Source: Candidatus Latescibacterota bacterium
GTDB lineage: Bacteria > Latescibacterota > UBA2968 > SICM01
Assembly: GCA_965217865.1 (NCBI GenBank)
Contig: CBDCJO010000002.1
Location: 3,424,001 to 3,488,000 of the forward strand
DNA length: 64,000 nucleotides
Direction of reading: 5' to 3'
Both the position numbers and the translations under genes were made by a program. Positions 34,242 through 44,715 of the stretch are shown here, one piece after another (position 1 is the first letter of the stretch; every line of letters starts with the position of its first letter). The notes beneath the pieces were generated by a model. That model was not told where the DNA came from. It saw only the letters and a program-made list of their open reading frames with translations, and ran no database searches.

Positions 34242-34361
34242 AATTTTTACAAGCCTCCATCGGGTGAGGGAGTTAAAATACAACAGAAAAATCGTTCCAA
34301 CAACCGGAATTGAAGTCATCCGTTTCACCCGAAAGCCTCAGGATCCAATCCCAAAGGAGGG

Positions 34362-37300
34362 ATGAAATTTCCAATTATCCTGTCCAGGTCCCACGATTCC
34401 TCGCCCTGTGCATCCCCCTGGTCTTCTGGTCGATCGAAATTTCAGCCCAGGCCGCTGGTACGATCGGGACCTTTGCGGGAGGGGGTACCTCCGAAGCGGA
34501 TACCCTTGCGACGGCGTCCCGGCTTATTCTTCCCACAGGACTGGCGGTGGACGGGGAAGGCAATGTCTTTATTGCCGACCCGGGTGCGCACCTTGTGAGA
34601 CGGGTGGATGCGGAGAGCGGGATCATTACGACCGTCGCGGGCACCGGGGAACCGGGGTTTGACGGAGATGAGGGTCCTGCCGTTCAAGCACGGCTGAACC
34701 GTCCGATCGGGGTTGCGGTGGATGGGGATGGCAATCTGTTTATCGCCGATAGGGGGAACCGGAGGGTCCGGCGGGTCGACCGAACGAGCGGGATCGTTAC
34801 GACTTTCGCTGGGACCGGGGAACCGGGGTTTGACGGAGATGAGGGACCGGCTGCGGAGACCCAACTCTACGAGGTTGTGGGGCTCGCCGTCGATAGCGGA
34901 AACAATCTCCTGATCGTGGACGGGGGAACGGTCGTAGAGGACCCGTTCTTCGGGAGCCGCATCGTGGGGAATCACCGGATCCGCAGGGTGGATGCGAACA
35001 CGGGGATCATCTCCACGATCGCCGGGACCGGGGTCGCGGATTTCAGCGGGGACAACGGTCCCGCGATCTCGGCAGCCCTCTCGTTTCCCTCCCGTGTCGC
35101 GGTTGATGCATCAGGCAGGATTTTGATCTCCGATTCGGGAAATCACCGGGTGCGCGTGATTGACCCGGAAAACGGAATCATCTCGACCTTCGCGGGTGTG
35201 GGTGGAGATCCGTTTACCGGAGCGGGCGGCTTTTCCGGGGACGGGGGGTTGGCGACTCTTGCGGGTCTGGACAGTCCGGTCGGTCTCGCCTTTGACGATG
35301 AAGGCAACGTCTTTATCTCCGATCAGGGAAACAACAGGGTTCGATGGGTGGACACGAACGGTGTGATCTTCAGCGTGGCTGGGACTGGAAGGGGGGAATT
35401 CGGTGGGGATGGGGGTTTCAGCTTTCAAGCTGGACTCGATCTTCCTTCGGACGTCGACCTGCTTCCGAGGGGTGATCTGCTCGTGGCCGACTCGGGGAAC
35501 GGACGAATCCGGAGACTCTTCGGGCCCAGGACGCTCATTCCGCTCGGCGACGCTGTCCAGGAGGTCGATTTCGGAGGTGCCACCCTAGAGACCACGAGGG
35601 AGAGAACGGTCTCCGTGCGGAATGTGGGGAACGCCCCCCTCGGGATAAGGGAAATCCGAACCGATAACCCTTTGTTCGTGGTCCTCGACACAAGCCTGAC
35701 CCTCGCGGTCGGGGACAGCCTCGTGGTCTCCCTTAGTTTTACTCCGGAGACCCCCGTGAGAGTTGAGGGGATCCTCACGATCTTAACGAATGATCCGGTG
35801 GGCCGGCTCACGGTGACCCTTACCGGCCTTGGAACCATCCCCGATATCCTGCTTCTCGATCAGAGCATCAATTTCCTTCCTCTTGTGATCGGGTTGTCCG
35901 ACACGCTCGAGGTGACCCTGTTTAACCGTGGGATCGGTGATCTTTTTGTCCGGTCCGTGACCAGCTCAGATGCACAATTTATCTCCCCGGACACCCTGTT
36001 TTCGCTCAGCTCCGGCCAGAACATGCAACTGCGCGTCATCTTTTCACCCGCGTTGGTCGGAGAGCAGACGGGCACGCTCACGATCCAGAGCAACGACCCT
36101 GATGCGGGGGCAGTAACCCTCGATCTTCGCGGGGTCGGCAGGCCGGCAAAGCCCGGTGGGTTTACTGCGATCGGGGACAGTCTGGGCCTTGGAGGGACCG
36201 GGCGGGAGTTCGGGGTGGCCTGGGGGGACTATAACGGAGATGGGAGTCCGGACCTCTACATCGCGAGAAGCCTCCTTCCGGGTTCTCTCCATCGGAACAA
36301 TGGGGACATGACATTCACCGATATGGCTGTCGGGCTGAACGTCACCAACGATCGGGACGGCAGCGCGCCGTTGTGGGGGGATTACGACAATGACGGGGAT
36401 CTGGATCTTTTCGTGACAAATTTCAACGAGCCGAATCGGCTGTACCGGAATGACGGAACGGGATTCGTCGACGTCGCCGGGGCGGCCGGACTCGACGCTG
36501 CCACGGCGGGGATGGGCGGGGCCTGGGCGGACTACGACATCGACGGGGATCTCGATCTCTTCGTGGCCAACTTCGGTCCCGATCACCTCTATCGGAACGA
36601 CGGCGGGCTATTCGTGGATGTATCGCCCGGGCTTGGTCTCGTGGATTCCCTCGGAAGCAGCGTTCAGCCGGCCTGGGCGGATTACGACCAGGATGGCGAC
36701 CCGGACCTGTATGTGGCGGCCAGCGGGAGAGATCGGTTTTTCGAGAACGATAACGGTCTGTTTGAGGAGATCGGGGACTCTCTGATGGTGATCGATCACG
36801 CGCCCAGCTTCGGGGCAGCCTGGGGGGACTACGACAACGACGCGGACCTGGACTTGTTCGTCACAGGGTTCAACACCGTATCGCATCTGTATCGAAACGA
36901 TGGGGGGTCGTTCGAAGACGTGGAGGGGAGCCTTTTTTTTGAAGACGACGGTACCTGGAAGTCGCGGGGAGCCGTCTGGATAGATTATGACAACGACGGA
37001 GACCTGGATATCTATATCGTGCGGAGCAACCAGACGAACCTTCTCTACCGGAATGATGGGGGGGCCTTCACCGAGGTGGGCGAGGAGCTCGGGGTCGATT
37101 TGCTCGGGGATGGGCGGGGCGCCGCGATTTCCGACTTCGACGGCGATGGTGCACCCGACCTGTACGTGGCCAACCAGGACGGTCCGGGCCGCCTCTACTG
37201 GAATCGCGAAGCCCTTGGGGGCTGGCTTGCAGCCCAACTGGTCGGTAGTTTGAGCTCGACGGATGCGATCGGTACGCGTGTTCTGGCGGTATTCGATGGG

Positions 37301-39064
37301 CGGCCTCTCCTTCAGGAGGTCAGCGGAGGATCCTCACACCTCTCCCAGAGCGGGGCGGTCCTCCTGTTTGGAGCGGGACGGGCGGAGTTCGCGGATACGC
37401 TGACCGTCCGTTGGCCCAGCGGGATCGTCCAGGTGCTGAATGCCCTTCCGGAAGGCCGGCTCACCCGGATCGAGGAGACGCCACCCAGTCCCGCATCCCG
37501 GATCGAGTTGACGACTTCCGCGACGGAGTTGATCGCAAACGGCGCCTCGACGGCAAGGCTCATTGCCTCGGTCTTGGACGCGAGGGGAGAACGATCCTTG
37601 AGCAGCCGGGCAACGATCACCTTTGGAATCGATTCGGGGCAGGGGAGGCTCGAAGGACCGTTGACGGTCGAAGCCCGCGATGGGGTGGCATCGATCCTGT
37701 TCCGTTCGCCCGATCTGGTACCGGGACGGACCTCAATCTCAGCGCGTTCGCCCGGGTTAACGAGCGGGCGGGTCGAGATCGATCTTTTCCCCACACCTGC
37801 CGGAGGCGCGATCGCTGTGGCGGCGGGAAGCGGTCTGACCGGGCTGAGCGGAGACGGGGGCCCAGCTATAGAGGCGGGGCTCAGCCTTCCGGAAGGGGTT
37901 GCGGTCGCCGACACGCTGGGCACGATCTACATCGCCGACACGAACAACAGCGCCGTGAGGCGTGTGGACGGGGGGTCCGGGGTGATTTCGACCCTGGCCG
38001 GAAACGGGGTACGTGGAAGCACAGGGGACGGGGGGCCTGCTTCGGAAGCGCGCCTGAACACCCCATCGGATGTCCTGGTCACATCGGACAACCGGCTCCT
38101 GATCGTGGATACGGGAAACCACAGAATCAGGCAGATCCACCTGGACACCGGGATCATATCGACCCTTGTCGGGGTCGGGTTCCTCGGGAGTGAGGGGGAC
38201 GGGGGCCCCGGCGCAGAGGCAAACCTGTTCTTTCCGACATCGGCCGCGCTCGACTCCCTCGGCAATCTCTATATCGTGGACACAAACAACCATCGCATCC
38301 GCCGGGTGGATCGAGCGACGGACATCATCAGCACGGTCGCCGGAGACGGATCGGCCGGGTACTCCGGGGATGACGGTCCGGCTTTCCGGGCAAGCCTCAA
38401 CCAACCCCAGGGGATCGCTTTCGACCCCGAAGGCCGCCTCTACATCGCGGACACGGAAAACCATCGCATCCGCCGGGTGGACCTGGTCACAGGAACAATC
38501 ACCACTGTTGTCGGAGACGGCCAAAACATATTTGCAGGTGATGGGGGACCAGCCCGGGAGGCCAGTCTCAACGGGCCCAGGCGCCTGGCCATAGGCCCAG
38601 GGGATGACATCTACATCGCGGACACCGGAAACCATCGCCTGCGAAGGGTGGATGCCGGAACGGGTCTGATCACGACCGTGGCGGGGACGGGGGTCGTGGG
38701 GTTCAACGGGAGGGAAGGTGAGGATGCGAGGGAGATCCAATTGAACGAACCGGTGGGGATCTCCCTGGAAGGGACAGAGGGTTTGTTCCTGACGGACCGG
38801 GGAAACCATCTGGTTCGACGACTCACGATCAAAAAGCAGGATGTTCCGATTGATTCCGTGACCTCCGATTTCGACAGTGACGGGGAGGTGGGGCTCGAGG
38901 ATTTCTTTCTTTTCGTGGAGAAATTCGGAACAATGGAAGGAGAGCCAACGTTCGACGCCAGTTTCGACCTGGTGAAGGATGGAACCGTCGACTTCAACGA
39001 TTTTTTCGTTTTCGCGGGACAGTTCGGGAGACGGACTACCAAACCCGTTTTCTTTTCCCGTTGA
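34362..39064 (+). CDS. giant surface protein: NHL repeats, Ig-like, FG-GAP/CRTAC1-ASPIC, Big-1-like, NHL repeats, paired EF-hand/dockerin-like C-terminus (possible frameshift in signal peptide)
   Basis: ORF 34310-39064; GF.GDGGPA NHL units, WGDYDNDGD.DL repeats, C-terminal DFDSDGEVG..DFF.F...FG twice. The RBS-preceded ATG at 34362 is out of frame. Confidence 0.85.
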
Positions 39065-39825: not shown

Positions 39826-40340
39826 TCGAAGGTCGCGAAGACACGATCCCCTATATTCCACGGAGAACCCATTTTCCGAAAATTCTAATTGAAGGGATAG
39901 GAGATATGCGCAGACACACCCGGTTTCTCGTCGTCCAGCTGCTTTTCGCACTGTTCCTGTCGTGCATCTTTCCCATCTCCCTCCTTTCACAGGAGGACGC
40001 CGGGGGGACCGGGTCCCCCGGCTGGATGGAGCATTTGATCCTGAAACTGAATGAACACGTCGGGCACATCGTCAGTTATATGGCGGACATCCTTTTTGCG
40101 GATTTCAGGACGGGTGTCCCTCTGATCGTTGTGGTCCTGGTGGCCGGCGGGGTTTACTTCTCCTTCTTCTTCGGATGGATGTCAATCCGGGGATTTCGGC
40201 ACGCCATCCACTACATGCGGAAAGTCAAGAGCAAGGTTGACGATTTCGAGGTTGGATGAGATTTTTTATGCCGGTTTTCTCAGCGTCAAGGGGTGTAAAG
40301 TGGACATTCTTACTATGTTCGGAGCGCAGTTCGCCCTTAT

Positions 40341-40618
40341 GGTGCAGGACCGGTCTTTGAAGAGGGGCGAAGCTCCCGTGTGGGGGGTGGTGTCTTCCGA
40401 TACCAACTTACATCCGCGGCCGGCACTCTTGTTTGTGTGAGTAGGTGTGCCGGTCTTCGCGCATTTTCTAATCCGATCCAGGAAGACGGGGAGGCCTGCG
40501 GATCTGTTAGCCGAAGCGACTCCTATCGGAGCCCTCCTCTCAAGCCAGTTCTGCAGGCCGCCCCTGGCCGCCTTGGAAGGCGGCAGCTTGTGTAACCGGT
40601 CCGGCAGGAGACTGCACC
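40341..40618 (-). ncRNA. candidate bridge/seek RNA of the IS110 element
   Basis: Nested helices read from sequence: 40341-54 with 40595-618; 40392-98 with 40481-87; 40420-26 with 40447-53; 40493-502 with 40550-59. Loops carry short matches to element ends and target. Confidence 0.65.
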
Positions 40619-40669
40619 GGATGTGAATCGAGCAGCGATGTCAAAGAGCGAGTGTGACCGCGGCAGCGG

Positions 40670-42002
40670 TCAGGCGGCGGCGCGAGCGCGCCGTCGGGGA
40701 TGCTGCTTTTTCTTGTAGCGCTTCATGTAGCGCCTCTCGAGCGTTTTGAGGGATGCCGCGGGGTGGTCTCTCTCCTCGTAGAGACGATTTTCTCTGAGCA
40801 GGGCTACGATGAGCCGTAGGAGCTGGGACGAGGCGGCCACGATATTCTTGCGGTAGCACTTCTTCCTGAGCTCGCGTTCGAGGAAGCGGCGGCGGACCTG
40901 GGGCACGACCCGGGCGGTCTGTTCGGTCATCTGGGTAGATGATTCGCCGCAGCCGGGGATTGCCGATCTTGCTCATCCGCCTTTTGCCTTTGTACTTTCC
41001 GGAGTCGGCGATGCGCACGTTCGTGCCGGCGAGCTTCTCGATCTGTTTGAAGTGGGTGAAGCGGGTGGCCCCTCGCGTCTCCGCGGTAAATTGGGCAGCC
41101 AGGTTTTTGTTGATGTTGGGGATCGAGTCGACGATTTGGAAAGTCGGATCCTGCTGAGTGCGGGCGATCATCGCCTGCTCCACAGCTTTGAGTTGCGTCT
41201 CGGTCCGCCGGAGCGCCTCGATCCAGCCATTCAGGATGATGCGGAGGACATCTTCCTGGCCCTCGACCGGGATCCCGATGGAGGTCCGGGCCTCCTCCTT
41301 CAGCTTCTGCAGCGTCGCCACCCCGTAACTGCCTCTTGAGATCCGATGGATCTGGCGGCCCTCCTCTTCGATGTCAATTTCCTCGAAGTGGCGGGGCAAG
41401 AAATATCGCTCCAACAGGTAGCGGGAGGTCTTCGTACGAATGTTGACCGCGTGGAGGAACTCCGGGAAGACGCGTTCCATCAGAGACCGGGTGCGGAGCA
41501 GGGACTTTGTGAGGTCCTTCCGGAGCTTGTCGTAGGCGATTGAGAGCTGGTGCGCGGCCTCCATGTGAGGCTCGAACGTCCTGAAGAGATCATAGCTTCC
41601 CTTCTGTGCGCTGTCGGCCACCAGAAAGGCATCCCTGGGATCCGACTTGGAGAAATCGCGGTGCATCATCGGTCTTGCGTGATACGTCGTGAGGGGGCTC
41701 ACCAGCAGCACGCGATACCCCTTCCCCTGGAGGTAGTGGGCCAGGGTAACCCACAGATTGCAGGACGTCTCGATGGCCACCACCATCCGATCCGGCCCGC
41801 AATCTTTGATGCGTCGCTCCAGATGCTGCCAGAGGGTATGGTCATATCCCGCTCGCGTCACGGGGAATGAGAAGGCCCCGCCTTGCTGAAGTCCGGAGGG
41901 ATCGAGCACCGACCCGCTGTGTTTTTCCTTGCCCGGATCGATCCCGAGGACGAAATTCTGGGAGATGGCCTGTCGTTTAAGGTGGAAGATTTTCGACTTC
42001 AT
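40670..42002 (-). pseudogene. IS110 DEDD recombinase with +1 frameshift near 40935
   Basis: LGIDPGK, IETS, KSDPRDA (DEDD); DSGK serine loop, GNPRLR; true C-terminus continues in ORF 40670-40930. Confidence 0.85.
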
Positions 42003-43512
42003 CGTATACCTCCAGCGTTGAGGGTTGAGTTTGCTTGCGCTTGCCGAATCTTAAGACACCTTGCCTTGCAAGGGAAGATTCAGCCCCTCAACGCTGTTTT
42101 TTCCTCCTTTACTCAATATAGAAATCGTTATCCGGGGGCGCTATGACGACCCCAAGGACCCGGGTGAGATCTCCCATTTTCAGGCCCTCACCAGCGCGCT
42201 TTCCGCAACGATCGGCCTGGGCAACATCGCAGGTGTGGCCATCGCCGTGGGTCTGGGGGGGCCCGGCGCGGTCTTCTGGATGATCCTCACCGCCCTGTTC
42301 GGGATGTCTTCAAAACTCGCTTCCTGCACGCTGGCTGTCATGTACCGCAAGGTTCACCCGGACGGCCATATATCCGGAGGTCCGATGTACTATCTGGAGC
42401 AGGGGCTCCGGGAAAAGGGGCTGCGGCCGCTCGGCCGCACACTGGCCGTCCTCTTCGCTCTCCTCACCATCGGGGGTTCCCTGGGGGGAGGGAACATGTT
42501 CCAGGCCAACCAGACGGTGGAGATCTTCAGCACCATCTCCGAGGACTTCAGGACCTACAACTGGGTGCTTGGTCTCTGCTTCTCGGTCATGGTTGGCATC
42601 GTGATCATCGGCGGTATCCGCCGGATTGGCCGGGTCACGTCCCGTATCGTTCCGTTTATGTGCCTCACCTACGTGATCACGGCGATCCTGATCATCCTTT
42701 CCCATCTTTCCGATGTCCCGGAGATAATCGCAACGATCGTCCGTGAAGCCTTCACGGGACCCGCGGTTTATGGCGGTTTCATCGGAATTCTGGTCACGGG
42801 GGTGAAGCGAGCGGCTTTCTCGAACGAGGCCGGCCTCGGGTCCGCTGCATTTGCGCATTCGGCGGCAAAGACCAATGAGGCCGCGCGCGAAGGTATGGTC
42901 GCGATGATCGGCCCCTTTATTGACACGATCGTCATCTGTCTGATGACCGCATTGGTTTGTATGATTACGGGTGTTTATAACGACCCGCAGTTCCAGGGTC
43001 AGGGCGATTTCGTCGTGGGGGCCAGGATGACGGCCGCGGCCTTCGAGTCGTCCATACCCGGTTCCCGCTACGTCCTTTCGCTGGCCGTCATGCTCTTTGC
43101 TTACTCAACGATGATCTCCTGGTCCTACTACGGGGAACGGGCGTGGGAATATCTCTTTGGGGCCAAATCCATCCTTGTCTTTCGGATCATCTTTGTCTGC
43201 TTCGTCTTTATCGGATCGGTCACCACCTTGAGAAATGTGCTGGACTTTTCGGATATGATGATCCTCGGCATGGCCTTCCCGAATATTATCGGGGTCGTGA
43301 TACTGAGTCCGCAGGTCAAGGCGACTCTGAACGAGTACTGGGGGCGGCTGAAATCGGGACAGATGGTCCCATACCGGGAGGGGCATAAAGTCCAGGATTC
43401 CCGCGGCTCGATGGATGATCCGGGAAAAGCCCGGCCTTAAAATCAAGGGGATTCAGGATTTCCCGCCCTCGGAGCGGGGTAGTGTCCTAATTTGAGAAAT
43501 GCAGGTAGGTAA

Positions 43513-43830
43513 TCAGGTTGGGTTTTTCGATTCGCGGTAGTCTTTAAGGAGGGAAGCCCGCACAGCGTCTTGAGCAGATTTCACCGGAACTATATGGAGC
43601 ACGGCATAAAAACGGCGCCGATCTGAGTTCTGGACTGGTTCGCTCCAGGCATAGCAGACCGACGCTTCTTTATGGCCCTTCAAGTTAAAAACGTGCACAT
43701 CATCTTCCCATACGGTCTGGCCCTGAAAGGTTTCGTGGACGTGTTCGATATGACTGAAGATGGCTTTGCAGGAATGGAGGCCCTCTACGGTTTCTTTAAG
43801 TTCCTTCTGGCCCACTTTCTTCATCTTCAC
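43513..43830 (-). CDS. hypothetical passenger protein
   Basis: 105-aa ORF inside the TIRs (TVWE..V.VF.L.GH...CYAWS). Confidence 0.65.
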   Translation of the reverse strand: MKMKKVGQKELKETVEGLHSCKAIFSHIEHVHETFQGQTVWEDDVHVFNLKGHKEASVCYAWSEPVQNSDRRRFYAVLHIVPVKSAQDAVRASLLKDYRESKNPT

Positions 43831-43939
43831 CTTTCAACAAGTCATCATCCACAAGGAAGGTTTTCAATTGTTTCAAATGTTCCATTGCAGATTCCAATTT
43901 CCTCCACTCCTCTGAGGTCATCGGATTGGGTAAACGTAA

Positions 43940-44715
43940 GGAGATCTACAGAGCGTATAGTGGAAACTCACAGAGACACGATACTAAGGCTGATGTGCCG
44001 TGTTGGGGCTGGATGTGAGAAATTGATGGATTCTGAGATGCGGAATCTGTCTTGTGAGCGGATTCAGTTGGATGAAATTTGGGGCTTTGTTGGGAAAAAG
44101 CAACGACACCTAAAGGAAGGGGATGATGTGGCAAGCCTTGGGGATACGTGGACCTTCGTGGCCTTGGATGCGAAATCGAAGCTGGTGCCTACCTACAAGG
44201 TGGGAAACCGAGATTCGGCAACCGCTCAAGTCTTCTTGGATGATTTGGCTTCCAGGCTGACTGGCAGGATACAGTTATCGTCTGATGCCTTTAGCGTATA
44301 TTTTGAGACCGTTGACCGGGCGTTCGGCACAAATGTTGATTATGGACAAATCGTAAAGGTCTATGAAGCCGAACCTATTGGGGCTGGTAGGTATAGCCCG
44401 CCCAAAGTTACTGGGGCAAGGCGTCAAAGCCTATGGGGAAATCCCGATCCAGCACACATCTCAACCAGCCACGTTGAGAGACAGAATCTCACTATGAGAA
44501 TGAGCATGAGGCGGTTCACCAGATTAACCAATGCATTCTCAAAGAAGTTGGATAACCTCAAGGCAGCGGTGGCCCTTCACTTCGCATACTATAATTTCGT
44601 CAGGATTCATAAGACGCTGGGTATCACACCAGCGATGGAGGCAGGGGTTACAGGTAGGCTTTGGTCGCTTGGGAATCTTATGGATGCGGCAATGGATCAC
44701 AATCATGCAAAATAA
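43940..44715 (+). pseudogene. IS1-family DDE transposase, N-terminus deleted
   Basis: IQLDEIWGFVGKK, LSSDA..Y, STSHVERQNLTMRM..RRFTRLTNAFSKK; starts abruptly within the HTH region. Confidence 0.8.

Follow-up and report, generated by a model that had tools for sequence, protein, structure and literature searches.

An IS110-family insertion element in a Candidatus Latescibacterota genome probably encodes a bridge RNA that guides insertion of its clade into integron attC sites, at the inner edge of R', and that reads the duplex target as two boxes with an unpaired spacer of variable length between them. The element lies in a window of 64,000 nucleotides, the whole stretch of DNA that was analysed, and had been singled out in an earlier note as a programmable RNA-guided recombinase. 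Comparison of homologous sequences documents the conserved fold of the RNA and its four guide segments, as well as a core of 1 bp, a handshake base and flanks that resemble attC. It also reveals a second target guide, which keeps step with the L' box. The main features of the locus are as follows.

40212..42126, minus strand: IS110-family element of 1915 bp, counting a single copy of the 1-bp core; ends placed by flank divergence among genomic copies
40670..42002, minus strand: DEDD recombinase gene (PF01548 and PF02371), frameshifted in the window copy by an extra G at 40933
39906..43440, plus strand: alanine:cation symporter gene (alsT/agcS; PF01235, TIGR00835), split by the element
42127..42133, plus strand: target half-site GTTATCC inside alsT, resembling the R' box of attC, with no attC hairpin

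The host genome holds seven near-full copies of the element and several fragments. The 443-aa protein is intact in four of the seven aligned copies; the window copy and one other share the extra G, and a third copy is disrupted elsewhere. When the copies are compared on the plus strand of the window (a slash marks the element end), the end at 40212 reads AC/TACATG in all 11 genomic junctions, and the end at 42126 reads AGAAATC/GTTA in 10 of 11. The core is a single base pair, one C common to both junctions, whose second copy is the C at 40211, outside the element span. Removal of the element with one C left behind gives alsT the same codon count as two paralogues and six relatives, one of the relatives reading CAC GTT ATC at the insertion codons, and together with the 11 junctions this restored frame upholds the one-base core proposed in the earlier note. 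The junctions, the alsT frame and the empty sites agree with the shared core, the scarless excision and the lack of a target duplication that characterize IS110 elements. We rejected wider ends that would place GT and TAAC within the element at the cost of target bases, as the flanks follow the guide, empty bottom-strand attC-like sites read TAAC-G in eight of nine cases, and the alsT frame needs one shared base. No transposase-free mini-elements were found among nine partial copies whose break points were inspected. One copy (G000:C2:3759592-3761495), its gene intact, is 12 nt short at the tip of its left end and is joined at a different C straight to GTTAGGC, possibly through an aberrant crossover on the donor. 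At another position (G000:C2:2467576-2468210), a 355-bp right-end fragment that carries the RNA core adjoins five 29-nt repeats spaced 61-62 nt apart, presumably a CRISPR-like array.

The recombinase combines a RuvC-like DEDD domain with a Tnp domain bearing the catalytic serine, the architecture of IS110-family bridge recombinases, and residues D22, E78, D121, D124 and S334 are invariant in 43 homologues. A structure model of the protein (pLDDT 90) matches ISCro4 with a Foldseek E value of 5e-13, at an identity of ~20% to ISCro4 and IS621; the frameshifted ORF of the window scores 133.5 against NF033542, whose cut-off is 140. Homologues were collected from 135 loci at 33-90% identity. Parsing was limited to the 101 that had a complete 3' frame and identifiable anchors, and the rest were dropped as truncated or unparsed. 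Together with the window, the parsed set forms 58 clusters at 80% identity, after which four frameshifted copies belonging to a single element were combined; on visual inspection, seven of the parser's picks were corrected or blanked. Among the named hosts are Bacteroidota, Ignavibacteriota, Nitrospirota, Calditrichota and Acidobacteriota, and a close homologue is present in just one of 40 related genomes. The closest plasmid proteins are Firmicutes IS110 proteins of 390-400 aa with 24-28% identity, and a plasmid search with another IS110-type protein of the genome returned no IS1111-attC name among the 40 listed of 116 matches. A second IS110-family gene, encoding 347 aa (L001:5573-6616, minus strand), lies ~1.1 kb from one element copy.

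The non-coding end of the element contains the putative bridge RNA, which is composed of the following parts.

40364..40564, minus strand: conserved bridge-RNA core, defined by the top covarying pairs and by pair counts
40564-59/40369-64, minus strand: closing helix of the core, from covariation
40493-88/40378-73, minus strand: helix of the core, from covariation
40341..40618, minus strand: 5' hairpin (40567-84) and outer helices that surround the core, from sequence and predicted fold; lineage-variable

The region 40335-40625 folds with a z score of -4.0, none of 200 shuffles folding as well, and the whole 459-nt element end reaches only -1.75. In an alignment of 49 non-redundant homologues, the column pairs with the strongest covariation are mostly canonical base pairs. 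A 32-pair model, whose helices were picked after viewing this same alignment and its top covarying pairs, is paired in 87.6% of cells as compared to 39-51% in slid controls; 30 of its 32 pairs change on both sides, and compensatory changes that include G-U pairs occur in all helices. The homologous sequences support a functional bridge RNA, and the element end, like that of other IS110 elements, carries a structured RNA with two internal loops, as judged from the predicted and covarying structure. Its conserved core is a three-way junction with a target-binding domain and a donor-binding domain, which correspond to the two stem-loop-stem modules described in the earlier note. The hairpin at 40567-84 is likewise present in the sequence and in the predicted fold, as is an outer helix pairing 40595-618 with 40341-54. 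However, this helix (7+8 bp) varies between lineages, its own partner being the best one in 11 of 49 homologues, and the closure conserved across the clade is the three-way junction rather than the enclosing helix that had been proposed. Rfam at gathering thresholds gives no matches across the window. In RNA runs X15, X18, X19 and X22 (one study, contigs only, share 0.10-0.18), three contigs cover the RNA region at a depth of 2.9-5.1; pieces of the gene are covered like the RNA region, at low depth, and the contigs give no sign of a discrete RNA, its strand or its ends. A conserved CAGG...CGCCC motif lies 3' of the RNA core (window 40320-40338, alignment A2 columns 505-523) and a TCTTTGA motif lies just past the stop codon in many homologues; both possibly relate to RNA ends or processing.

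Three of the loop strands could be assigned by their match to the element ends and a target flank.

40502..40510, minus strand: target loop 3' strand, with guide CUAAC (40510-06), free base 40505, core-pairing G 40504 and handshake AU (40503-02)
40463..40469, minus strand: donor loop 5' guide, AGA, bulge at 40466, AAU, complementary to the left end at 42120-25
40405..40413, minus strand: donor loop 3' strand, with guide AUGUA (40413-09), free base 40408, core G 40407 and handshake U 40406

The 3' strands of both loops follow one pattern, C-G-n, a five-base guide, a base X, a G and the handshake. Covariation between guides and DNA was counted with one row per 80%-identity cluster and compared with permutation. 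The matches reported previously are present, namely GTTAGCCG at 40506-13 with GTTATCCG at 42127-34 (7/8), TTTCTA at 40465-70 with TAGAAA at 42119-24, and TACAT at both 40409-13 and 40212-16. The target guide tracks the flank, as its last base agrees with flank position -1 in 45 of 45 clusters (permuted mean 37.5); these matches include TAAT, TAAA and TACA variants (two T, two A), and the sole TACA target is paired with a CUACA guide. However, the eight-base length was overstated: position -6 does not covary (11 of 45 clusters, 7.8 expected), and the working seed is therefore approximately CUAAC. At the right end, the donor guide agrees with positions -5 to -2 in 44 of 44 clusters (permuted means are 19.7 at -2 and 36.7 at -4). 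The donor 5' guide does pair with the left end as had been suggested, but not in the contiguous register then assumed, which was rejected because 25 of 46 clusters is the chance level; with a one-base bulge, left-end position +3 agrees in 42 of 46 (permuted 19.7). These counts are the loop covariation with target and donor that the earlier note had advised looking for in homologues, and together with the covarying fold they support its picture of an RNA-guided IS110 recombinase whose RNA has distinct loops for target and donor and additional enclosing helices.

The bases that follow the guides are informative about the core and the exchange of strands. The donor-loop handshake base agrees with target position +1 in 28 of 43 clusters, where 12.8 are expected, and in this genome the U at 40406 predicts the T seen at target +1 in 11 of 11 copies as compared to 5 of 9 empty sites. 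The target-loop AU matches the left end in 47 of 47 and 44 of 47 clusters and is invariant, hence uninformative. The base X varies freely without covariation; it occupies the place of A79 in IS621, between the target-binding bases and G80, which would account for the one-base core. As in IS110 bridge RNAs, covariation of the loops extends to target and donor and involves both strands. Guide states change 4-11 times on the protein tree, and in the tree test of the left end 6.2 of 7 independent pairs change the same way and none the opposite way (median p 0.03); the other four of the five tree-independent tests have too few pairs for significance, and pairs that change oppositely are rare and confined to the handshake. 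Partner swapping by duplex energy was discarded as a guide test, as it was dominated by G+C content. Elements L111, L142, L145, L040, L044 and L119 are naturally reprogrammed, with TACA, TAAA or TAAT targets in place of TAAC, and L142 has a repeated right flank. The 'programmable' of the earlier description holds in the sense of these natural guide changes only.

Most of the genomic copies lie between a hairpin-forming stretch that ends in RAC and a GTTRRRY-like box. Six of the 11 sites that are occupied in this genome score as attC-like, as compared to 31 of 857 empty TAACGT sites (p 2e-6), a roughly 15-fold enrichment that exceeds what the short guides explain, and a same-strand ORF ends 86-165 nt before the insertion point in 5 of 10 sites. 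Right flanks of 120 nt or more are available for 64 distinct homologous sites; 30 of these are attC-like as compared to 5 of 1920 shuffles, and the remaining 34 fall below the attC threshold. Sites were scored by arm alignment, which superseded a first scoring that penalised long terminal loops (10 of 66 against 26 of 330). On these sequences, the programmed target of the family is likely an integron attC, entered at the inner edge of R', a point that we take to be one base from the integrase cut. Where the hairpins contain extra bases, these are confined to the far arm (19 of 19 sites). According to the accessible text of PMC5027507, the extrahelical bases of the bottom strand face the AAC of R', and by this geometry the element lies antisense, at the R' inner edge. 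No integron integrase above the TIGR02249 cut-off was found in this genome, the best match being split over two frames. An integron-integrase-like gene in two frames is located at G000:C2:1657178-1657994, and a 93%-identical fragment (4999294-4999473) lies ~4 kb from one copy of the element. The attC-like sites of this genome may be orphan arrays.

The earlier note found no convincing guide for the left target flank because it took the alsT site, likely an off-target, as its reference in place of an integron attC. A second target guide is located on the 5' strand of the target loop.

40544..40549, minus strand: target loop 5' guide, RNA ACUGGC; its predicted partner is the L' box of attC on the element-sense strand, at a distance of 5-9 nt to the core

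Held to a single register, this guide performs poorly (9 of 71 sites at offset 0). Allowing offsets 0-4, at least five of its six bases match at 43 of 71 sites as compared to 9.3 when guides are swapped between clusters, or, counted by cluster, 24 of 43 as compared to 5.2 with swapped guides (maximum null 13). The R''-L'' spacer of attC was assumed to be 5 nt long, and with this value the start of L' was set from the attC fold alone. The unique best register of the guide coincides with this structure-defined start in 20 of 23 sites, at positions ranging from +5 to +9 (chance 5.4, maximum 15), and the guide spells the L box without the extrahelical base (11 vs 3). Guide strands of 14 nt with the same sequence occupy two neighbouring registers in four of seven groups, and strands of equal length span all five offsets 0-4; the shift within one guide sequence is one base only. 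Bases +1 to +4 agree with the RNA at the chance level (28 vs 29.3). In the sister elements L142 and L145, guide and flank change together, at offset -1. Taken with the fold of attC, these sequence matches indicate that the target loop appears to read its site as two separate boxes at a variable distance of 5 to 9 bases. Within this genome the L-guide matches in at least four of six bases at 4 of 11 sites, the alsT site not among them (background 8.9%, p 0.012), and tracking of L' is not universal, because the hairpin sites of this element match at +5/+6 and the fold puts L' near +8. The near arm of these hairpins beats the far arm in fixed register at four of six sites, read by eye. Where the arms of attC differ among homologues, the guide sides with each equally (2 vs 2), a fair count that replaced a first one of 41 vs 11, in which the near arm had been free to pick one of five registers and wrong far boxes had been used.

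The alsT insertion differs from this pattern, as its hairpin score is at most 3 and its L-guide match at most 3/6, and it is likely an off-target event. Half-match insertions are described for IS621 in the available text of 10.64898/2026.08.31.748434, and the alsT site, which lacks a hairpin, fits an insertion of that type. The 3' part of alsT (window 42127-43390) is identical to G000:C2:703592-704856 over ~1.26 kb bar one junction base, and its 5' part is just 91-92% identical to either paralogue; recent gene conversion or assembly collapse may account for the 3' identity. Just downstream of alsT is an IS1-like transposase ORF (window 43672-44715), beside which a small ORF (43513-43830) has no Pfam match, and upstream is a 1584-aa ORF (34310-39064) that is repeat-rich and secreted-looking.

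The element ends carry two halves of a predicted promoter.

40223..40228, minus strand: -35 box TTGACT of the predicted circle-junction promoter, from sequence
42115..42120, minus strand: -10 box TATATT of the predicted circle-junction promoter, from sequence and homologue left ends

On paper, joining the ends through one core base yields TTGACT-17-TATATT. A TAT..T hexamer is found at the -10 offset in 80 of 80 parsed left ends, largely by construction, as the parser demanded most of its letters, and the spacer length in homologues is also by construction, because their right ends were set by the -35 rule. A promoter scan of the linear element gave two weak sites only. We infer a circular intermediate with a junction promoter, as in IS621 (accessible text of PMC11208158), and draw RNA processing, the order of the strands, the handshake exchange and the placement of recombinase dimers on the loops from the same analogy. 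In this scheme, the ends would join into a circle, which creates the promoter, and the transcript that starts there would be processed to the 3' RNA. Recombinase dimers would bind the target and donor loops, and the 3' strand of each loop would pair with the strand that is cut first, namely the top strand of attC at GTTRRR and the equivalent strand of the donor, with X, at the place where IS621 pairs its second core base, left without a DNA partner. Following strand transfer, the handshake bases would pair with the other partner, and the 5' strand of the target loop would pair with L', leaving 4-8 DNA bases between core and L' unpaired. Insertion would place 1.9 kb between R' and L', disabling the attC, and the alsT insertion would represent a half-match event on the TAAC-G-T seed only.

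We prefer this duplex reading, and think it probable, because sites that do not fold are used and because this element's own sites fit the near arm. The same RNA and guides could also act on the folded top strand of attC, as a single-stranded hairpin or a cruciform arm, with the 3' guide on R' and the 5' guide on L'' of the other arm; the R''-L'' distance would then be fixed at 5 nt, the extrahelical base flipped out and one strand transferred, and no stretch would be needed. Such docking is feasible given that IS110 elements are reported to transfer the top strand only, in the available portions of 10.1101/2025.10.25.684509 and 10.64898/2026.08.31.748434. It would account for the base register of the RNA, which equals the 5-nt spacer, and for the attC-like enrichment among occupied TAACGT sites, and the far arm in a fixed register does about as well as the near arm in a shifted one (0.66/0.69/0.84; 0.62/0.75 without the extra base). 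However, it does not explain insertions at non-folding sites (the window and C2:3759594) or the better fit of this element's hairpin sites to the near arm, and the far-arm spacer bases are unmatched (32 vs 27.3, p 0.16). Several sites with shifted matches of 5-6/6 also have no detectable far arm within 420 nt, although decay after insertion could explain their absence. We regard this form of recognition as possible, yet doubtful.

The RNA might instead read only the TAAC seed and the handshake, the preference for attC arising from the protein, from melting of the palindrome or from the survival of harmless insertions, with the L-box likeness as a relic. The weak L-guide matches in this genome and the half-match insertion documented for IS621 (available text of 10.64898/2026.08.31.748434) would agree with this, but it is unlikely given that guides fit their own flanks far better than those of other clusters and that L142 and L145 change guide and flank jointly. 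That the loop matches arise by chance, or are DNA-level repeats with no role in an RNA, is very improbable: the matches are 5-8 nt long, the window has no Rfam family match and the contigs of the four RNA runs from one study show no RNA enrichment, but the helices all carry compensatory changes with G-U pairs among them, and the bases of the loops vary together with DNA ends and flanks that lie far from them, in registers that contain a bulge. Irrespective of whether the bases between the boxes are looped out from a duplex, as we prefer, or bypassed on a folded strand, we lean slightly towards the view that this cross-phylum clade reads structure-defined addresses, the R and L boxes being encoded separately and any natural spacer accommodated by a 4-8-base loop-out or by folded-strand docking of the kind that integron integrases use, with a one-base core and a placeholder base.

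If this is correct, the clade would make it possible to test directly whether folded single-stranded DNA can be used by RNA-guided recombinases, and its natural one-base-core, split-guide scaffold bears on the retargeting range and the half-matched sites of bridge recombinases. A widespread element apart from the IS1111-attC group would also freeze cassettes in environmental arrays by cutting R' off attC. Literature searches turned up no description of such an element: one for IS110 with attC and bridge RNA returned only Durrant 2024, and those for bridge recombinases with integrons and for a one-base core returned nothing; subscription papers, the original IS1111-attC papers among them, lay outside these searches.

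By its sequence features the element belongs to the IS110 family and would work like a bridge recombinase. The available text on IS621 and ISCro4/IS622 (PMC11208160, PMC11208158, 10.1101/2025.05.14.653916; PDB 8wt6 and 9t56) describes the same DEDD plus serine recombinase fold, two loops with a guide on each strand, a G that pairs the core C followed by an AU handshake in the target loop, and a circle-junction promoter, which is predicted here. According to the same sources, those proteins have 328-341 aa, as compared to 443 here at ~20% identity. In addition, the RNA lies downstream of the gene here and the guide order is reversed relative to the element; the IS621 core is CT rather than 1 bp, and its A79 pairs T9, whereas the equivalent base is unpaired here; IS621 reads a continuous 14-nt window, whereas here the second target guide is detached by a variable spacer; and the three-way junction scaffold is unlike theirs. 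The left-end RNA and CT core of IS621-like elements are not found in the clade, in which the left end has a median length of 124 nt and the right end 427 nt (68 elements).

The IS1111-attC group (ISKpn4, ISPst6, ISPa21 and ISPa25), as portrayed in the accessible parts of PMC11187229 and PMC3001079, resembles the present element in its 3' non-coding RNA, in a top-strand match 5' of the bottom-strand match, and in a fixed attC insertion point antisense to the cassette array. We rejected identity with this group, as its sub-terminal inverted repeats of 11-13 bp are absent here, where the longest is 7 nt, and its transposase has 330-350 aa (PMC11187229) rather than 443. A search for sub-terminal repeats reached 12 in one of 68 elements, with a distribution like that of shuffles. 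The hosts also differ, being here Bacteroidota, Ignavibacteriota, Nitrospirota and others, and the element sits at R', the 3' end of attC, probably at another point than ISPa21 and ISPst6, which the available text of PMC3001079 puts 'near the 5'-end'. Elements of the IS110 subgroup with proteins of 395-455 aa, the nearest named match being the ISBth13 family at 25.6% identity, are alike in length class and in having no sub-terminal repeats; in the ISBth13 copy inspected, ~436 bp precede the gene and 122 bp follow it, the usual 5' layout, unlike here, and some IS110-type elements with a 3' region are mentioned in the accessible text of PMC11187229. ISPpu9 of Pseudomonas putida (PMC12288879, available text) is an IS110-group element with palindromic repeat targets and circles with a junction promoter, but it has an AG dinucleotide core, a REP target and a bridge RNA in the 5' transcript. 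Group IIC-attC introns, as covered in the accessible text of PMC3001079, are also RNA-based mobile elements inserted antisense in attC, but with retroelement chemistry and an unrelated protein. If our reading is right, the element would represent a separate origin of RNA-guided parasitism of integrons, and its bridge RNA would be the first whose target is split, distance-tolerant or a hairpin. What sets the element apart is the one-base core with its placeholder base, combined with a distance-tolerant guide for the L box.
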